Positions 3,151 to 35,071 of a stretch of DNA of 40,095 nt are shown piece after piece. The stretch is taken from positions 1-40,095 of the IMG/VR virus record IMGVR_UViG_2740892121_000006, one strand, 5' to 3'. The translations under genes and the position numbers were made by a program. Position 1 is the first letter of the stretch. Every line of letters starts with the position of its first letter. The notes under the pieces are model-generated. The model was not told where the DNA came from. It searched no databases and saw only the letters and a program-made list of their open reading frames with translations. The stretch is from a virus. Lineage: Duplodnaviria > Heunggongvirae > Uroviricota > Caudoviricetes.

Positions 3151-5613
3151 TCAATTCCCTGTTAATTGCAAAACTTGCTCTTCCAGCTTTTTAACCCTGC
3201 GTCTCATCATCGCAGATTCCAGAATCAGAGCCTCTTCATAACGGATACCGTAACATTCACCAGCCTCGACGGCTTCGCGTACCAGAACCTTTGTCTGTAT
3301 AAGTGGGTAAACTCCTGCAGAATGCTCTTCTTCCGTCACATCCCTGTATTCTGCCGGGGTCTCATTCCACTTGTCATAACAGATAAATGCCAGTCGTGAC
3401 ACATCTATGCCTTCATTCTGAAATACACTGATAACATGCTGCGCAACTGCACCAAAGTGCCATCTTGCTCCGTCTTTACCTTTCACTTCGATCCTGTCAA
3501 GGTACTGGTATGAAACCCATTCCACTCTTTCCCATGCGTCCAGTATTTTCTCATCAATAACCTCTGGAGCAGTCTTGAAACGCGCATCGGACAGCACCGT
3601 AAACGCTGACTGGGTAAATCCCCCCGACCATGCACGACCAGCCAACCCAAGAGAATAAGTATTCGTTTTCGATGGTGTCATGGCTGAATCAGAAAACTGT
3701 ATATATTCTGAATTTCCAGTAGATATTCGAATATTTCCATTTATTAGCGACATAGTGCCTTTAGTATTATCACTATTGAATAATTTCAATTGCGAACTTA
3801 TACCGCCTCCCACAGCCAGAGATACATCGCCTTCAGCAAGCATTCTGAATTTATCTGCAGAAACAAGCGTCTGGTTAGCAAGGTTAAAATATTTAACCCA
3901 CCATTCAAAACGCCCTGACATAGTCCCAACGTACTGACCAAGCGCAGGGACGTGAACAACATTGCTATTTGTAGTGCCGTCTATACTGGAAATACCAGTC
4001 ACCGCTGATGCAGAACTCAGAATATTATTTCTGTCACCCGGATGTTTAATTTCAACAAAGTTCCTGATACACCCTTCCTCGAAGGTAACCACGCCGGAAG
4101 AACTATACATGGGGAATATTGACGCATAATTACTGCGTGCAGCATCTAAGAAACGAATGGTTGTAGATGTCTGCAGATCTCCTGATTCATTTTTCCCATC
4201 ACACCCAGTCATTAGAATATTACTGGCAATATTATTATTTCCCTGAACGGTGACGCCGTGCGCCTGCTTTGCGTCCGATTCAGAGTAATCAACCAGCACA
4301 TTCGAAATCAGGTTACCAGTCCCCTTGCCAACAACTACTGCGGCGTATTTTGGGTTGTTAGCCATTACACTGCTAATGATATTATTCGTTGGTGCAGTTT
4401 CCGTCTCAGTTCCATTGTAAACAACGTGCTGACACTCTTCACCAATAACATTGCTGACAATGTTATATTTTGCTGCTGTTTTAAGTTCCACTGCACCAAA
4501 CTGAGGATAATTTCTGGCTATCACACCATCAATTAGCGTATTTTGCGATGAATCAAAAAGCACACAACCTGCTTTTTTATTATTTGCGAACCCTAAATAC
4601 TCTCCTCTTATATCTCTAACAATGTAACCTGACGGAATACCATTATTCGGATAAGCGATCAAGCTAAATCCTGTTCCTCGCGTATTTGTAAATCTGATAT
4701 TTTTAACCGATACATCATGGCCACCTGAAAATGACACCTGGTGTCCCTGCACACTATCATCTGATTTATTTCCCATAATTGTTAGCGTACTAAGCATGCC
4801 ACCATCGGGCATGTTAAAAACCAGATGATTACCATCTCTGTCATACTGTTTTATCGTTCCCCCACCTGTTCCGTACAAGCCACAACGTGAAAGAGAAACT
4901 AAAGATGTATTGAATACCCCTTCCGGAACAAAAACACTGCTAAACGAATGTAATGATTTTGTAAAAGCATCCTTGTTATCATTTAAGATTCCATTTTGAG
5001 CTCCAAAATCCTTAATGCTGACACCATCACGCATCTTATCCTGGAACGTTCTGTATACCGCTCCAGAACCATACTGAATAAACCAACCAAAACCACCAAT
5101 AACTCCGGCGATTGCAGCATCGACATAATTACGCATTGAGCGATTATTTACAGCGTCCTGCTCAAGTGATGGATCGGCAAGGTTAGATATTCTGTTTTGC
5201 TTTGCATCGTAATATTTTGCAAGCAAAGATGGTTTCATCAATGCACGTCTGAACCACCCAAAACATCGCTGGATCAGCATCGTCAGGTAGTCAAATGCAT
5301 CCTCATGAACTTCGGGGAAAAATTTTCCCTGATTGCGAAGATCAGTCTCCTGCACCACATCAAGCACACGCTCTATCGTGATTCGCCAGCCAGCAGCAAG
5401 CGGCGACGGAAGAACCACTGCACCGCCACTATAAGTTCCCGCCCCTGTTACCGTATAACCAGCATCCAGCACTAGTTTTGTAACGTTACCGTTAAGGTCA
5501 GACACCTGAACAACCAGGTCGGATTTTTTGAAAATACGGAAGGTATACGGAAATGATGTCGTAACGCCGTTACCTGTGTATTCGTTGTGGTCAACTTCGG
5601 TTGAGACCGTCAT
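3151..5613 (-). CDS. Tailspike / tail fibre with T7-fibre-like N-terminal anchor and C-terminal S74 intramolecular chaperone
   Basis: N-terminus YTGNGVTTSFPYTFRIF resembles phage tail-fibre N-domain; long Gly/Asn/Ser-rich central region (beta-helix-like); C-terminus SDARFK...GARWHFGAVAQHV matches endosialidase-chaperone (peptidase S74) pattern; SD GGAG. Confidence 0.8.
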   Translation of the reverse strand: MTVSTEVDHNEYTGNGVTTSFPYTFRIFKKSDLVVQVSDLNGNVTKLVLDAGYTVTGAGTYSGGAVVLPSPLAAGWRITIERVLDVVQETDLRNQGKFFPEVHEDAFDYLTMLIQRCFGWFRRALMKPSLLAKYYDAKQNRISNLADPSLEQDAVNNRSMRNYVDAAIAGVIGGFGWFIQYGSGAVYRTFQDKMRDGVSIKDFGAQNGILNDNKDAFTKSLHSFSSVFVPEGVFNTSLVSLSRCGLYGTGGGTIKQYDRDGNHLVFNMPDGGMLSTLTIMGNKSDDSVQGHQVSFSGGHDVSVKNIRFTNTRGTGFSLIAYPNNGIPSGYIVRDIRGEYLGFANNKKAGCVLFDSSQNTLIDGVIARNYPQFGAVELKTAAKYNIVSNVIGEECQHVVYNGTETETAPTNNIISSVMANNPKYAAVVVGKGTGNLISNVLVDYSESDAKQAHGVTVQGNNNIASNILMTGCDGKNESGDLQTSTTIRFLDAARSNYASIFPMYSSSGVVTFEEGCIRNFVEIKHPGDRNNILSSASAVTGISSIDGTTNSNVVHVPALGQYVGTMSGRFEWWVKYFNLANQTLVSADKFRMLAEGDVSLAVGGGISSQLKLFNSDNTKGTMSLINGNIRISTGNSEYIQFSDSAMTPSKTNTYSLGLAGRAWSGGFTQSAFTVLSDARFKTAPEVIDEKILDAWERVEWVSYQYLDRIEVKGKDGARWHFGAVAQHVISVFQNEGIDVSRLAFICYDKWNETPAEYRDVTEEEHSAGVYPLIQTKVLVREAVEAGECYGIRYEEALILESAMMRRRVKKLEEQVLQLTGN

Positions 5614-5716: not shown

Positions 5717-5733
5717 ATTACCTTTCAGGTAAT
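5717..5733. promoter_or_regulatory. 17-bp palindrome ATTACC-N5-GGTAAT (candidate repressor operator)
   Basis: ATTACCTTTCAGGTAAT, perfect 6-bp inverted arms; about 75 bp upstream of small ant-like gene. Confidence 0.5.
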
Positions 5734-5769: not shown

Positions 5770-5789
5770 TACTGTATAAATATACAGTT
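5770..5789. promoter_or_regulatory. LexA box (SOS operator)
   Basis: TACTGTATAAATATACAGTT = CTGT-N8-ACAG with AT-rich core, 18/20 match to TACTGTATATATATACAGTA; ends 6 nt before the first ATG. Confidence 0.7.
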
Positions 5790-5809: not shown

Positions 5810-6067
5810 ATGCAGCAGTATCACTATCCACTGGAAGAGGGATTTACCGAAAGGATTCACACGCCGGGAGGCGTCAGGTCACTGGTGGAGGGATCGCACT
5901 TGATGAAATTACTCCGGGATCTCGATAAGGATGGATTTAATGTCGATGGCCCACTTGCCGAACTGACTGCACTGATTAACTACGTCACCAGCTCACAGAT
6001 GTCTATGCAGGATCTGCAAACACATCTCGACTATTGTGCCGAACAATTACGAAAGCAAACCACATAA
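5810..6067 (+). CDS. Small antirepressor-like protein (stand-alone copy of Ant C-terminal domain), LexA-controlled
   Basis: About 40 percent identity by eye to the C-terminal 65 aa of the Ant protein at 7534-8226; start at second ATG (SD GGAG 9 nt upstream); track start 5795 also possible. Confidence 0.55.
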   Translation: MQQYHYPLEEGFTERIHTPGGVRSLVEGSHLMKLLRDLDKDGFNVDGPLAELTALINYVTSSQMSMQDLQTHLDYCAEQLRKQTT

Positions 6068-6090
6068 AGAAAAGGCCGCAAGAGCGGCCA
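6068..6090. terminator. Hairpin terminator between convergent genes
   Basis: Stem GGCCGC / GCGGCC (6074-6089) with loop AAGA; A-run on plus side gives T-run for minus-strand transcript ending gene B. Confidence 0.5.
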
Positions 6091-6597
6091 TTAACAGTCG
6101 AAAAATTCTGGGTCCCACAAACTTGCATCGCGCGGCATGGATTCTAACTTTTTCAGCCGCAAAATTCTGTCACACTCGACAACTAATTTTTGCTTCTGCT
6201 CGTCAATTTCTACTGTCTTATGTGCTGGTTCATCCCAATAATCCAGAAGGAAGGCATGGCGTTCAGATGTGACCAGATAAATCACATACACGTCACTGGT
6301 TGGGATCTTTTTATGCTTGTTAGTGGTCTTGTCTTTCTTCCCAGACGCCCAGTTTTTCCAGCATTGTTCCGTACCGCTCTCACCAAACTTGTCAGTATAG
6401 TTTCCGATGTTTACATGAACGTGGCGTATGTGATATTCCAGCATCTCTTTCGGTGGATCCCGAAACAGAGTGTCCTTTCCGAAATCCTTATGATGACCGT
6501 AGCGCCAGTGATCTATGAACGCGTTTTTGATAGGTATTAGCTCAGGGTCCTTCCCAAAAATTCCAGGGTGAACCAACCCCTGGAATTTATTCGGCAT
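6091..6597 (-). CDS. Hypothetical protein (gene B of two-gene moron operon)
   Basis: 168 aa from ATG 6597 (SD AGGAG), start overlaps last codons of gene A by 11 nt; His-rich segments GHHKDFGKD, HIRHVHV; no family recognised; track ORF extends to 6660. Confidence 0.5.
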   Translation of the reverse strand: MPNKFQGLVHPGIFGKDPELIPIKNAFIDHWRYGHHKDFGKDTLFRDPPKEMLEYHIRHVHVNIGNYTDKFGESGTEQCWKNWASGKKDKTTNKHKKIPTSDVYVIYLVTSERHAFLLDYWDEPAHKTVEIDEQKQKLVVECDRILRLKKLESMPRDASLWDPEFFDC

Positions 6598-7114
6598 CGT
6601 CGTAGAGCTCCTGAGCCATATCTTCAGCAGTGCGTGCAAACATCCTGCGCGAGATTGCATGGGATTTCTCTACGGACATCTTTGGGACCTCATGCATAAC
6701 AAGTTGATGAGTTTTCTCATCAACTTGAAGTGGCTTGTATAAACGTTGCCACCTTTCGTTAATTTTATCCTTAAAGCCAGCGAAACCACTTTCCTGACTC
6801 TTGTATCCAAAATGAGATAAAGCCAAATTCCTTTCCATTTCATTCCTAATGTACTCAGCAAGGTTGCAGTGGAATACTTCCCCTTGTTTTTTTAGGCATG
6901 CTTCATGGTCTGTAACACTGTGACGGCTCTCATATAAGTAAATGCGATAGGAATTTTTATTATCCTCTTCTTCATAATTTCTAATCGCATCAGCAGTTGC
7001 CATAGCTGCAGCGTAAGCGGCTGCTTCAATCACCATCTCTTGCTCTTTTTCTTTTTCAGGCCTTTTCAAGGCAAAGCGTCTATGCCTCATCGCTGTAACT
7101 CTCTTCGTGTTCAT
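6587..7114 (-). CDS. Hypothetical protein (gene A of two-gene moron operon)
   Basis: 175 aa from ATG 7114 (G-rich SD); basic N-terminus, largely helical, acidic C-terminus; no family recognised; track start TTG 7126. Confidence 0.5.
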   Translation of the reverse strand: MNTKRVTAMRHRRFALKRPEKEKEQEMVIEAAAYAAAMATADAIRNYEEEDNKNSYRIYLYESRHSVTDHEACLKKQGEVFHCNLAEYIRNEMERNLALSHFGYKSQESGFAGFKDKINERWQRLYKPLQVDEKTHQLVMHEVPKMSVEKSHAISRRMFARTAEDMAQELYDDAE

Positions 7115-7125
7115 GGGCACCCCCA

Positions 7126-7142
7126 ACTACCTTTAGGGTAAA
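7126..7142. promoter_or_regulatory. Degenerate copy of the 17-bp palindrome
   Basis: ACTACCTTTAGGGTAAA, one mismatch per arm; overlaps the translation-initiation region of gene A. Confidence 0.35.
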
Positions 7143-7250
7143 CATTCTATCGAAAGTATACGCTCACTGGCAAAAAAATAGGCAGGTATTTTCTGAAATG
7201 GGATCAATCAAACCACATAGGGTTGAAATAACGTGAGTTATGCATTTATT

Positions 7251-7267
7251 ATTACCTTTACGGTAAA
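7251..7267. promoter_or_regulatory. 17-bp palindrome (candidate operator) upstream of ant
   Basis: ATTACCTTTACGGTAAA; preceded by TTGAAA-N17-TTATTA promoter-like hexamers on plus strand. Confidence 0.45.
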
Positions 7268-7533: not shown

Positions 7534-8226
7534 ATGAATACCAAACCTTCCATCTTTTCCTTTGAGTCATCCTGCCAGATCCGTATGTTCATGATTGACG
7601 GAGAACCTTGGTTTGTCACCAAAGATGTGTGCAATGCTTTGAATATTGATGTTACACAAGCGAGAAAACTTGATAAAAAAGGCTGGAACAAAAAGGGGCT
7701 GTATTCAATACAGACCCCTGGTGGAATACAAGAACTATCCATCGTTTCAGAATCAGGTCTCTACATCCTTATTCTGCGTTGCAAAGAGGCAATGACAGAG
7801 GGAACGAGAGCATTCAGATTTCTTGAATGGGTTACAGGTGAGGTTCTTCCTCAGATCCGCCGCACCGGAAGTTACATTAAAAACTCGCTCCCGCAGGAAG
7901 AACGCATAAAGATGGTTGCCGACCAGGTAGCCAACGCCACAGCATCAGCAGTGATGCAGGCAATGAAGATAGAGAACAAAACCTACAGTGCCCCACTGAA
8001 GCCCGGCTACCGCAGCCTGATTCACTCGCCGTCTGGTGTTCTCGGCCTGACGGAGAACTCACTGCTGATGAATCTGCTGAACCAGTTACAGGACGACGGG
8101 CACGACGTATCGGGCGCGGCGGCGGAGCTGACCACCATGTTCTGCTACATCGTTGGTGTGAGCAAATGCCTGCGTGATATCCAGACGCACGCGGAGTACA
8201 TCAACGACAAAGCAGGGTTCTTCTGA
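7534..8226 (+). CDS. Antirepressor (Bro-N/AntA-type N-terminal domain plus C-terminal domain)
   Basis: N-terminus IRMFMIDGEPWFVTKDVCNALNI...GLYILILR typical of Bro-N/Ant domain; ATG 7534 with SD AAAGGTGA; track ORF begins at TTG 7489. Confidence 0.7.
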   Translation: MNTKPSIFSFESSCQIRMFMIDGEPWFVTKDVCNALNIDVTQARKLDKKGWNKKGLYSIQTPGGIQELSIVSESGLYILILRCKEAMTEGTRAFRFLEWVTGEVLPQIRRTGSYIKNSLPQEERIKMVADQVANATASAVMQAMKIENKTYSAPLKPGYRSLIHSPSGVLGLTENSLLMNLLNQLQDDGHDVSGAAAELTTMFCYIVGVSKCLRDIQTHAEYINDKAGFF

Positions 8227-8309
8227 CGGAGGCGGCACAGGGATGTGCCTACAATTATCAATAATTGTTTACACTCGTTGCAGTTAAAAGCATTATACTC
8301 ATGTTTAAA

Positions 8310-8326
8310 ATTACCCGATTGGTAAA
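8310..8326. promoter_or_regulatory. 17-bp palindrome (candidate operator)
   Basis: ATTACCCGATTGGTAAA just downstream of a TATACT -10-like hexamer and 20 nt before ATG 8347. Confidence 0.45.
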
Positions 8327-32823: not shown

Positions 32824-33625
32824 CCCACACCCCTTCTATCCAGTCAGTGTTATTCCAGTCAAGCTCATCGCTTTTCCCGGCGTTTTTTGATTTTCCCCTG
32901 ATATGATTTACGTGCCTGGCGAATTTTTGTTCCCACTGAACCTGCGTGAACACTTTGCCCTCAGCCATCCAGTAATCCCGGAATGCAGCAAGTTCAGCAG
33001 GTGTAAATTCCGGTTCCGGCAGGGCCGTTCCCCACAGCGCAGCACGCCGTCGAAAATCCGGCGACGGATGCCAGCCATCGGTCATCGGAAATTTCCCGAT
33101 GGGTTCACTCAGGCCATCCAGAAATTCAGGTTCAGCCACCTGCAACGGCATACCGTTCGCTTCACTGGTCGGAGCACCCTCGCGCACGTGCGCTATGTGT
33201 GGGGTTTTATATATATCTTCCTCTTCCTCTTCCTCTGGTAACTCCTTTTGTAACGCTGTTGGCGTTACTTTTTGCGTTACTCGTTTTCGATGCTCTGCCA
33301 CTCTTCTATTCGTAAGTGCACGTTTTTTCGATGATTCTCCATTATGTCGCTCAAAGTTTGGAAGAATTAGTTTGCCGTCATGATAAGCAAGCCATCCGAC
33401 GCTAATGAGGGCGTCAGCAAATCCTGTAATAAAAGCGAGTCTATCAAGTACTCCTTTTGTAACGCTGCCAGCGTTACCGTCTATTGTTTGCTGGTCAGCC
33501 CATGCCCATATACGAACCAGCTTTCCAAGAACAGCATCTGGATCAATACCCAGAATTTCTGCTATCTGAAAAATTTCAGGTTTATCAGGAGTGATAACTT
33601 CAACCTTAATCCAGCTGCTTGCCAT
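32795..33625 (-). CDS. Replication initiation / replisome organiser protein (lambda O functional analogue, not O-like in sequence)
   Basis: Immediately upstream of and overlapping P-like gene; acidic Glu-rich linker; ATG 33625 with SD GAGGGG. Confidence 0.55.
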   Translation of the reverse strand: MASSWIKVEVITPDKPEIFQIAEILGIDPDAVLGKLVRIWAWADQQTIDGNAGSVTKGVLDRLAFITGFADALISVGWLAYHDGKLILPNFERHNGESSKKRALTNRRVAEHRKRVTQKVTPTALQKELPEEEEEEDIYKTPHIAHVREGAPTSEANGMPLQVAEPEFLDGLSEPIGKFPMTDGWHPSPDFRRRAALWGTALPEPEFTPAELAAFRDYWMAEGKVFTQVQWEQKFARHVNHIRGKSKNAGKSDELDWNNTDWIEGVWDEINSRTSQ

Positions 33626-33966: not shown

Positions 33967-34197
33967 TCATGAGTAGAAGAAGTATGCCAGTTCTGCTTTT
34001 GAGCGCAGCCATTGTCTTGTTTTACAGGCTTTAAAAAGCCCATTCATCAATACTTTACCTGGCATTTTGCGCTTACCTGTTAAGTGAGTCTGGATATAGT
34101 GACTCGTCGTTCCGGCTTCCTGTGCGAAGGCTTCACGCTCATCCGGAGTAAGTGCAAGCCAGTGCTTTTTGAAATCGAAATGTCCGTTATCGCTCAT
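33967..34197 (-). CDS. Cro-like DNA-binding protein
   Basis: 76 aa, HTH-like segment, divergent from repressor gene across an operator-bearing 154-bp intergenic region. Confidence 0.6.
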   Translation of the reverse strand: MSDNGHFDFKKHWLALTPDEREAFAQEAGTTSHYIQTHLTGKRKMPGKVLMNGLFKACKTRQWLRSKAELAYFFYS

Positions 34198-34243
34198 AGC
34201 TATTGCCTGATATTTATTTCAGATAATAAATATTCACCCATAA

Positions 34244-34297
34244 GGTAACAAAAATCAAGGATAGTTACCCATGAGGTGCATTTACCTGTTGGGTAAT
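34244..34297. promoter_or_regulatory. Operator cluster in the cI-cro intergenic region
   Basis: TTTACCTGTTGGGTAAT (34281-34297) plus inverted half-sites GGTAAC-N14-GTTACC (34244-34269) overlapping a minus-strand TTGATT-N17-GAATAT promoter-like element. Confidence 0.5.
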
Positions 34298-34351: not shown

Positions 34352-34936
34352 ATGAAAAGTATCCAGGACGTCCGCAGGCAAAATCTCAACGACTTGATCG
34401 ACCGTGAATTCAATGGTGTTCAGACGCGGATGGCAGAAAAACTTGGAACTCAGGCAAATCTGGTAAACCGCTGGGCTCTTGGCAAGAAGGTTATCGGCGA
34501 CCAGGTTGCGCGAAAAATTGAAGCTGCCGCCAATAAACCACGTAACTGGCTTGATATCGATCGCTCGCTTTCTCAGGAAGGTTTTCAGCCTGTCGGCCCA
34601 AGCGACATTGGTCAGCTGGCGGCTCACAACCTGGAACGCTGGATGAGCGAAAGCCGCGACCTTTCAACTCAGGGAAAACTTCACCGCGCATCCGGCGTCG
34701 CCCAGGTGACAATCAGCCGCCTGTTAAACAATGAGGTCAGTGTTTCCATTTCCACCCTGGAGAATGTTGCATCAGCATTCGGGCGTCACGGCTATGAATT
34801 ACTGATTCACCCGCACGACCCTGCGACCATCAACTATGACCGCTCGCGCTACGCATTGTTACCCGAAACCGAGAAAGCAAAGATCGAAAGTTACATTGAA
34901 TTTGTCATCAACCAGAACGAAAAAAACAAACAATAA
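34352..34936 (+). CDS. CI-like repressor with two tandem HTH (XRE-type) domains, no S24 peptidase domain
   Basis: HTH-like segments at residues about 25-65 and 105-150; no Ala-Gly/Ser-Lys protease signature; divergent from cro-like gene. Confidence 0.65.
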   Translation: MKSIQDVRRQNLNDLIDREFNGVQTRMAEKLGTQANLVNRWALGKKVIGDQVARKIEAAANKPRNWLDIDRSLSQEGFQPVGPSDIGQLAAHNLERWMSESRDLSTQGKLHRASGVAQVTISRLLNNEVSVSISTLENVASAFGRHGYELLIHPHDPATINYDRSRYALLPETEKAKIESYIEFVINQNEKNKQ

Positions 34937-34956: not shown

Positions 34957-34980
34957 AAGCCGCCTTCTGGCGGCTTTTTT
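34957..34980 (+). terminator. Rho-independent terminator after repressor gene
   Basis: AAGCCGCC-TTCT-GGCGGCTT followed by TTTT. Confidence 0.7.
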
Positions 34981-34992
34981 ATTGCCTATACT

Positions 34993-35009
34993 ATTACCTA
35001 ATGGGTAAT
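34993..35009. promoter_or_regulatory. 17-bp palindrome (candidate operator) upstream of -35
   Basis: ATTACCTAATGGGTAAT, perfect arms. Confidence 0.5.
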
Positions 35010-35027
35010 TTTTTTAACTCATATCTA

Positions 35028-35056
35028 TTGACATCAAACCAAATACGCATAATTAT
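35028..35056 (+). promoter_or_regulatory. PL-like sigma70 promoter
   Basis: TTGACA (35028-35033), 17-bp spacer, AATTAT (35051-35056); flanked by two palindrome sites. Confidence 0.5.
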
Positions 35057-35071
35057 TACCTCAACGGTAAC
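35055..35071. promoter_or_regulatory. 17-bp palindrome (candidate operator) overlapping -10/+1
   Basis: ATTACCTCAACGGTAAC. Confidence 0.5.

Follow-up and report, generated by a model that had tools for sequence, protein, structure and literature searches.

An SPC32H-type lysogeny repressor, probably controlled by an antirepressor, in a phiV10-like prophage of Escherichia coli

How does a phage repressor that carries two helix-turn-helix (HTH)-like segments and no autocleavage domain read its operators, and how is it removed from them when the prophage is induced? The question is raised by the rep gene in a 40,095-nucleotide stretch of viral DNA (IMG/VR virus record IMGVR_UViG_2740892121_000006, positions 1 to 40,095), called the window here. 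An initial annotation had described the product as a 194-amino-acid (aa) protein in the position of lambda CI, had proposed that induction proceeds through an antirepressor, and had suggested that the double HTH could read nearby 17-bp palindromes as a monomer. We examined homology, domain layout, the absence of a Peptidase_S24 domain, the operator motif and its enrichment, the antirepressor gene, and its LexA box. The gene product is very probably a lysogeny-maintenance repressor (Rep), orthologous to Rep of Salmonella phage SPC32H and controlled by an antirepressor. The earlier description is borne out on the lack of autocleavage and on the antirepressor route but not on reading by a monomer. 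The gene itself was found as described:

34352..34936, plus strand: rep; ATG start, 194 aa (open reading frame [ORF] list)

Homology carries this assignment. By tblastn, phiV10 gp40 and ORF21 of phage vB_EcoP_ZX5 (ZX5), among others, matched Rep with 100% identity. Rep is 75 to 78% identical to homologs from Enterobacter phages, 45% identical to homologs from Klebsiella phages, and 42% identical to the repressors of epsilon15 (gp38), SPN1S, and SPC32H (41.8% over 196 aa for the last). A phmmer search against PDB sequences returned 5D50 chain A, the "Repressor" of the SPC32H Rep-Ant complex, with an E value of 4e-42 over aa 1-190, and 5D4Z (SPC32H Rep 92-198) with an E value of 4e-20. Among 86 cluster representatives from a protein search, most were full-length (~190 to 200 aa), came from Enterobacteriaceae, and had both Pfam domains of Rep; the shorter fragments (9 of the 86) measured 106 to 162 aa. 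The rep gene is known and annotated already: it belongs to a common prophage family, and the structure of a homolog has been characterized. The GenBank note on phiV10 gp40 reads [quoted passage not shown] From the genes for gp40 and ZX5 ORF21, rep of the window differs in nothing material and merely resides in a different E. coli lysogen. When ZX5 ORF21 was overexpressed, free phage was no longer seen and the endolysin and holin transcripts fell by 99.99% and 99.97%, respectively, so that lytic transcription was repressed by >99.9% (PMC9782041).

The two HTH-like segments were detected by several approaches. Pfam HTH_3 matched two stretches of Rep at an E value of 1.2e-9, above the gathering score and best at aa 106-147, and the YdaS/Cro-like HTH family (YdaS_toxin) matched aa 21-61 with an E value of 3e-4 and 21 bits, under its 30-bit gathering score. 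PHROG transcriptional-repressor families matched both halves of the protein, covering aa 1-76 at the N-terminal side. In an AlphaFold2 (AF2) model built from 32 homologs (mean pLDDT, 78), two helical bundles (aa 4-59 and 83-151) are joined by a linker that is disordered at aa 73-83 (pLDDT <50), and a low-confidence stretch at 157-162 precedes a long terminal helix at 172-193. When this model was compared to the PDB with Foldseek, 5D50 and 5D4Z came out on top, with generic XRE-fold proteins (NHTF, SinR, C.BclI, DdrO, and Stl) far behind. According to the passages of PMC9986798 that cite Kim 2016, SPC32H Rep consists of an N-terminal DNA-binding domain (DBD), a middle dimerization domain (MDD), and a C-terminal CAD, which is responsible for tetramerization and is also where the antirepressor Ant binds. 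The same passages and those of PMC9638917, which also cite Kim 2016, describe SPC32H Rep as a tetramer on DNA, with the dimer binding weakly, and state that the DNA-binding domains paired on one palindrome belong to different dimers. Model and alignment give Rep of the window the same layout of N-terminal HTH, middle HTH-like fold, and tail, with the functions of the modules taken from this literature:

34352..34561, plus strand: putative N-terminal DNA-binding domain, Cro/YdaS-like HTH; aa 1-70, 54% identity to SPC32H Rep, pI 10.0
34562..34615, plus strand: flexible linker; aa 71-88, 22% identity to SPC32H Rep
34616..34807, plus strand: second HTH-like (XRE/HTH_3) fold; aa 89-152, aligns to 5D4Z, counterpart of the SPC32H Rep MDD
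34817..34933, plus strand: C-terminal tail; aa 156-194, 46% identity to SPC32H Rep, counterpart of CAD/TetDloop

By analogy to SPC32H Rep, aa 1-70 would be the part that binds DNA. Its recognition helix, approximately QANLVNRW, contains three residues (N36, R40, and W41) that are invariant in the 32 homologs and also kept in the Rep proteins of SPC32H and Klebsiella phage BUCT711. The linker is the most variable and most indel-rich part of the family alignment. The middle domain (aa 89-155) shares 33% identity with SPC32H Rep, and the protein from aa 89 to its C-terminal end has a pI of 6.6; within the second HTH-like fold, the family alignment shows an invariant R123 and a nearly invariant Q118. 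The tail has Y162 in all 32 homologs and D163 in nearly all (at least 90%), and an LP..EK.KI motif is kept there, also in SPC32H Rep. Further conserved positions are F143, G144, Y148, E149, L170, P171, and K175. We considered separately whether the two HTH-like halves arose by internal duplication and rejected this, as BLASTP returned no alignment between them at an E value of ≤100.

A comparable arrangement is known from Rco, the repressor that is paired with Rap on the Bacillus plasmid pLS20. Rco, one of the p53-like TetDloop repressors, resembles Rep in having an N-terminal HTH DNA-binding domain and a C-terminal tetramerization tail and in being counteracted by a protein partner; the tail supports DNA looping (PMC9986798). 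However, Rco has no middle dimerization domain, serves a plasmid conjugation system, and responds to a different partner.

If Rep is controlled by an antirepressor, where is the antirepressor encoded? The left part of the window contains the following features, the latter two without strand:

5810..6067, plus strand: ant, small antirepressor gene; 85 aa, 89% identity to SPC32H Ant, E value of 4e-50 (tblastn)
5772-5787: LexA box CTGTATAAATATACAG; a perfect CTGT-N8-ACAG, 22 nt upstream of the ant ATG
5717-5733: perfect operator 17-mer ATTACCTTTCAGGTAAT; in the tailspike-ant intergenic region, just upstream of the ant promoter region, kept in SPC32H

Small Ant is 99% identical to an unannotated ZX5 ORF, and Pfam returned nothing informative for it. 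The regions upstream of ant in the window phage and in SPC32H are 84% identical, and both the LexA box (TACTGTAT...TATACAGT) and the operator 17-mer are conserved. From these features we infer that ant of the window phage is under LexA control. Induction through the LexA-boxed antirepressor, the route proposed in the initial annotation, is strongly supported by sequence and by analogy: Rep is homologous to SPC32H Rep over its full length, Ant is 89% identical, and the LexA box is both perfect and conserved. In SPC32H, ant is reportedly repressed by LexA, and a single base change in the LexA box is said to make Ant production constitutive. The same logic, in which a LexA box governs a small antirepressor acting on a non-cleavable repressor, is found with Tum of coliphage 186 and with the Gifsy/Fels-2 antirepressors. 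However, those antirepressors are unrelated in sequence to Ant, and Pfam scans of Ant gave no match to them. SPC32H-type Ant has reportedly been described as a structurally distinct class.

The two partners have diverged to very different degrees. Relative to its SPC32H counterpart, Ant is nearly unchanged (89%), whereas its presumed target Rep is strongly diverged (42%), above all in the middle domain (33%). Either a small number of conserved residues makes up the whole contact surface, or phages exchange Ant modules, which can then cross-induce heteroimmune relatives. That Ant is so much better conserved than Rep hints at cross-talk among such relatives.

The window also encodes a second candidate, which SPC32H may not share:

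7534..8226, plus strand: Bro-N protein with a C-terminal Ant-like module; Pfam Bro-N E value of 2e-13, second antirepressor candidate

Among the annotations of the SPC32H record, none names a Bro-N protein or a second antirepressor; homology was not searched. Could this fusion protein be the dominant inducer, with small Ant either auxiliary or aimed at other prophages? Its C-terminal module of ~75 aa is 43% identical to small Ant over 72 aa. Over the whole protein it is 80% identical to ZX5 ORF4, labeled "anti-repressor," and near-identical in the C-terminal half; overexpression of ORF4 lowered lysogeny, with a drop in prophage titer from 1e9 to 1e6 and a 75% decrease in rep mRNA (PMC9782041). 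However, no LexA box lies upstream of the Bro-N gene. Operator 17-mers are found there, at 7126-7142 and 7251-7267, and a promoter-like site (7223-7252) abuts the latter. Moreover, the small Ant is the one that has been tied experimentally to the SOS response in SPC32H. We therefore consider it unlikely that the fusion protein is the dominant inducer. Because its promoter-like site abuts an operator, the protein would be made after Rep has been lifted, a role that is reinforcing rather than triggering; it may be a Rep-repressed antirepressor that reinforces induction begun by small Ant.

We then asked what Rep reads. A search of the whole window for TTACC-N5-GGTAA, with one mismatch allowed, returned 15 matches against 0.74 expected, a number reached in 0 of 100 shuffles; 12 of the strong sites are intergenic. 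In the SPC32H genome the same motif occurs 18 times against 0.66 expected, at syntenic positions, and in Klebsiella phage BUCT711 it likewise stands at syntenic positions. The palindromes that the initial annotation had placed at 34281 and 34993 do exist and belong to this set. We rejected the possibility that the sites are chance occurrences or terminator-like hairpins because of this enrichment, the intergenic location, the overlap with promoter-like hexamers, and the synteny in two diverged phages. Around rep, the sites and their neighbors are arranged as follows (entries without a strand are palindromic sites):

34233..34297: OR-like cluster of three 17-mers between rep and the cro-like gene, at 34233-34249, 34264-34280 (weak right half), and 34281-34297
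34281-34297: predicted operator TTTACCTGTTGGGTAAT; 17-bp palindrome, rep-proximal
34993-35009: predicted operator ATTACCTAATGGGTAAT; 17-bp palindrome in the OL-like region
34993..35071, plus strand: OL-like region; operators 34993-35009 and 35055-35071, 62 bp apart, on either side of the PL-like promoter
35028 to 35056, plus strand: PL-like promoter from a hexamer scan; TTGACA at 35028, 17-bp spacer, AATTAT ending at 35056
33967..34197, minus strand: cro-position gene; 76 aa, phrog_35 "transcriptional repressor" E value of 5.6e-13, first gene of the replication-side early operon
34957..34976, plus strand: intrinsic terminator 3' of rep; 8-bp stem with 6 GC pairs and a T-run, annotated as a terminator in phiV10

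The cro-position gene is divergent from rep and syntenic with phiV10 p41 and SPC32H_042; Pfam returned nothing informative for its product. A minus-strand PR-like promoter (34251..34223) overlaps the operator at 34233-34249, and the PL-like promoter drives an operon of two small ORFs, a PD-(D/E)XK exonuclease gene, and recT. This neighborhood has the layout of lambda cI, and the designation "CI-position" is therefore correct. The three-site OR layout and the 17-bp center spacing of the two rep-proximal sites are kept in SPC32H and BUCT711, and when the OR- and OL-like regions of the three phages were aligned, the conserved elements were the half-sites, the −35 hexamer TTGACA, and the spacings. 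There are also differences: the operator spacers of the window phage are less A/T-rich than those of SPC32H, and its OL region lacks a third operator and a hairpin segment that SPC32H and BUCT711 possess. From the position and symmetry of the TTACC-N5-GGTAA sites, and because their motif and the recognition helix are conserved alike, we infer that Rep reads them.

No promoter for rep itself was detected in the consensus scan. Our own reading, outside that scan, picks out TTTACC (34281), 17 bp, and TTAAAT (34309) as a candidate, which is kept in SPC32H and BUCT711. Since its −35 element lies inside the rep-proximal operator, this arrangement would allow autoregulation.

Does one Rep chain suffice to occupy a palindrome? 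In the manner of two-HTH monomers of the MarA/AraC type, a Rep monomer might contact both halves of a 17-bp palindrome through its tandem HTH domains. The chain does contain two HTH-like folds separated by a flexible linker of ~18 aa, and the invariant R123 and nearly invariant Q118 point to some conserved surface function in the second fold. However, the half-sites are identical inverted repeats and so call for two equivalent reading heads, whereas the two Rep domains have no similarity detectable by BLASTP (E value of ≤100) and carry different charge (the N-terminal domain has a pI of 10.0, the protein from aa 89 to the end one of 6.6). In SPC32H Rep, moreover, the second fold is the dimerization domain, and DNA is bound by the tetramer and only weakly by the dimer. 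These points make reading by a monomer very improbable, and this part of the initial annotation does not stand.

The absence of an autocleavage domain was confirmed on three grounds. Pfam detected no Peptidase_S24 match in Rep even at an E value of ≤1, neither an Ala-Gly nor a Cys-Gly dipeptide occurs anywhere in its 194 aa, and the AF2 model is all-helical, with no beta strands, whereas S24 domains are all-beta. Rep thus lacks both the S24 domain with its Ser-Lys dyad and the scissile dipeptide that mark the lambda CI/LexA type, and its cleavage is not expected from sequence and model. SPC32H Rep reportedly remains uncleaved in the SOS response. Most textbook temperate-phage repressors are inactivated by RecA-stimulated self-cleavage, and rep does stand where cI would in a lambdoid-style immunity region, but cleavage at a cryptic site is scarcely credible for an all-alpha protein with neither S24 domain nor Ala-Gly or Cys-Gly dipeptide, encoded in the same genome as a LexA-boxed ant gene. 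With lambda CI, P22 C2, and LexA (HTH plus S24), the Rep system has in common the immunity-region position, divergent promoters with several palindromic operators, and a connection to SOS. It differs in that SOS would be sensed indirectly, through a LexA-controlled antirepressor, and in having a three-module tetramer as its predicted working unit.

Returning to Rep as an antirepressor-controlled tetramer, we propose the following sequence of events, in which the activity as a repressor, the binding of DNA by a tetramer, and the action of Ant come from published work on proteins identical or homologous to those of the window. In the lysogen, pairs of N-terminal domains of the Rep tetramer would read the symmetric operators (A)TTACC-N5-GGTAA(T). 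Both early operons would stay silent as long as Rep occupies the sites that cover the divergent PR-like promoter (34233-34297) and those that surround the PL-like one (34993-35071). The middle XRE/HTH_3-shaped domain (aa ~89-152) would serve in dimerization, and the C-terminal strand-plus-helix tail (aa ~156-194) in tetramerization and antirepressor docking. DNA damage would lead to self-cleavage of LexA, which would free the LexA box at 5772-5787 and allow small Ant to be made. Ant would then bind the C-terminal part of Rep and break the tetramer, and Rep would come off the DNA.

The window phage matches the SPC32H Rep/Ant switch (PDB 5D4Z and 5D50) in full-length Rep homology, in the DBD-linker-MDD-CAD layout, in gene position, in TTACC-N5-GGTAA half-sites at syntenic places, and in the LexA box and operator upstream of ant. 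Three considerations weigh against carrying the switch over in full. Because Rep is only 42% identical to SPC32H Rep (33% in the middle domain), its oligomeric state and its contacts with Ant are extrapolated from that protein. More broadly, tetramer formation, Ant binding, non-cleavage, and operator binding by Rep itself rest on relatives. Finally, the sole study on an identical Rep, that of ZX5, used overexpression only, and the "anti-repressor" in it is the Bro-N protein, not small Ant (PMC9782041).

The operators are not confined to the immunity region. Operator-like 17-mers also occur at 5717, 7126, 7251, 8310, 25785, 28912/28930, 31932/31994, and 33896, nearly always between genes and syntenic with SPC32H sites. 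Those at 7251, 7126, 8310, and 31994 sit on the −10/+1 part of promoter-like hexamers (7223-7252, 7173-7144, 8284-8311, and 32016-31989, respectively), and silencing by Rep may therefore extend to many promoters of the prophage. Some sites are paired at a start-to-start spacing of 62 to 63 bp, and each of three diverged Uetakeviruses has such pairs at two separate loci. In the window these are the OL pair (34993-35071) and a pair after the replication genes (31932/31994, extending to 32010); in the other two phages they lie at 33604/33666 and 35972/36034 in one and at 3638/3701 and 724/786 in the other. The conserved spacing suggests that one Rep tetramer bridges two palindromes or micro-loops the promoter.

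These observations can be drawn together in a wider scheme, which we offer tentatively and regard as rather doubtful as a whole. Here Rep would act as a genome-wide silencer through ~12 intergenic operators on promoter-like sites, including those at ant/tailspike and the Bro-N/Ant promoter, with tetramers perhaps bridging the ~62-bp pairs into micro-loops; the Bro-N/Ant protein would form a positive-feedback latch that follows small Ant; and Ant, near-invariant beside a diverged Rep, would make cross-induction of heteroimmune Uetakevirus prophages possible.

Judged by its sequence, the window is an integrated E. coli prophage of the phiV10/epsilon15 type (genus Uetakevirus). Nucleotide comparison gave 97 to 99% identity around the rep gene to phiV10, vB_EcoP_ZX5, TL-2011b, and several further E. 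coli phages, and the phiV10 genome is collinear with the window in reverse orientation. The sequence ATTGAGTGGGAATGATT, reported as the att core of ZX5, which integrates at the 3' end of guaA, is present once in the window, at 1162-1178; the window is therefore read as an integrated prophage preceded on the left by ~1.16 kb of host DNA (1-1161). On the right, the end of the window falls on the start codon of the integrase gene. Between ant and the Bro-N gene, two minus-strand ORFs of 189 and 179 aa (6091..7126) have no Pfam match, and 6068-7261 has no megablast match in phiV10; this stretch looks like a moron-like insertion with operator sites on its flanks. The rep module and its operators were found in 539 of 5,426 complete E. 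coli genomes (~10%).

For the biology of this family, rep itself adds little that is new: it is a standard immunity repressor whose mechanism has been worked out structurally in a Salmonella homolog. The practical value lies in the correct annotation of rep and of small ant, which PGAP labels merely "helix-turn-helix domain-containing protein" and "hypothetical," respectively. Correctly labeled, these genes predict that such prophages are induced in the SOS response through LexA and Ant and not by cleavage of the repressor. The operator pairs at ~62 bp, the operators at many promoters, and the second, Bro-N-fused Ant-like module provide a modest lead on how a tetrameric repressor may organize a whole prophage.

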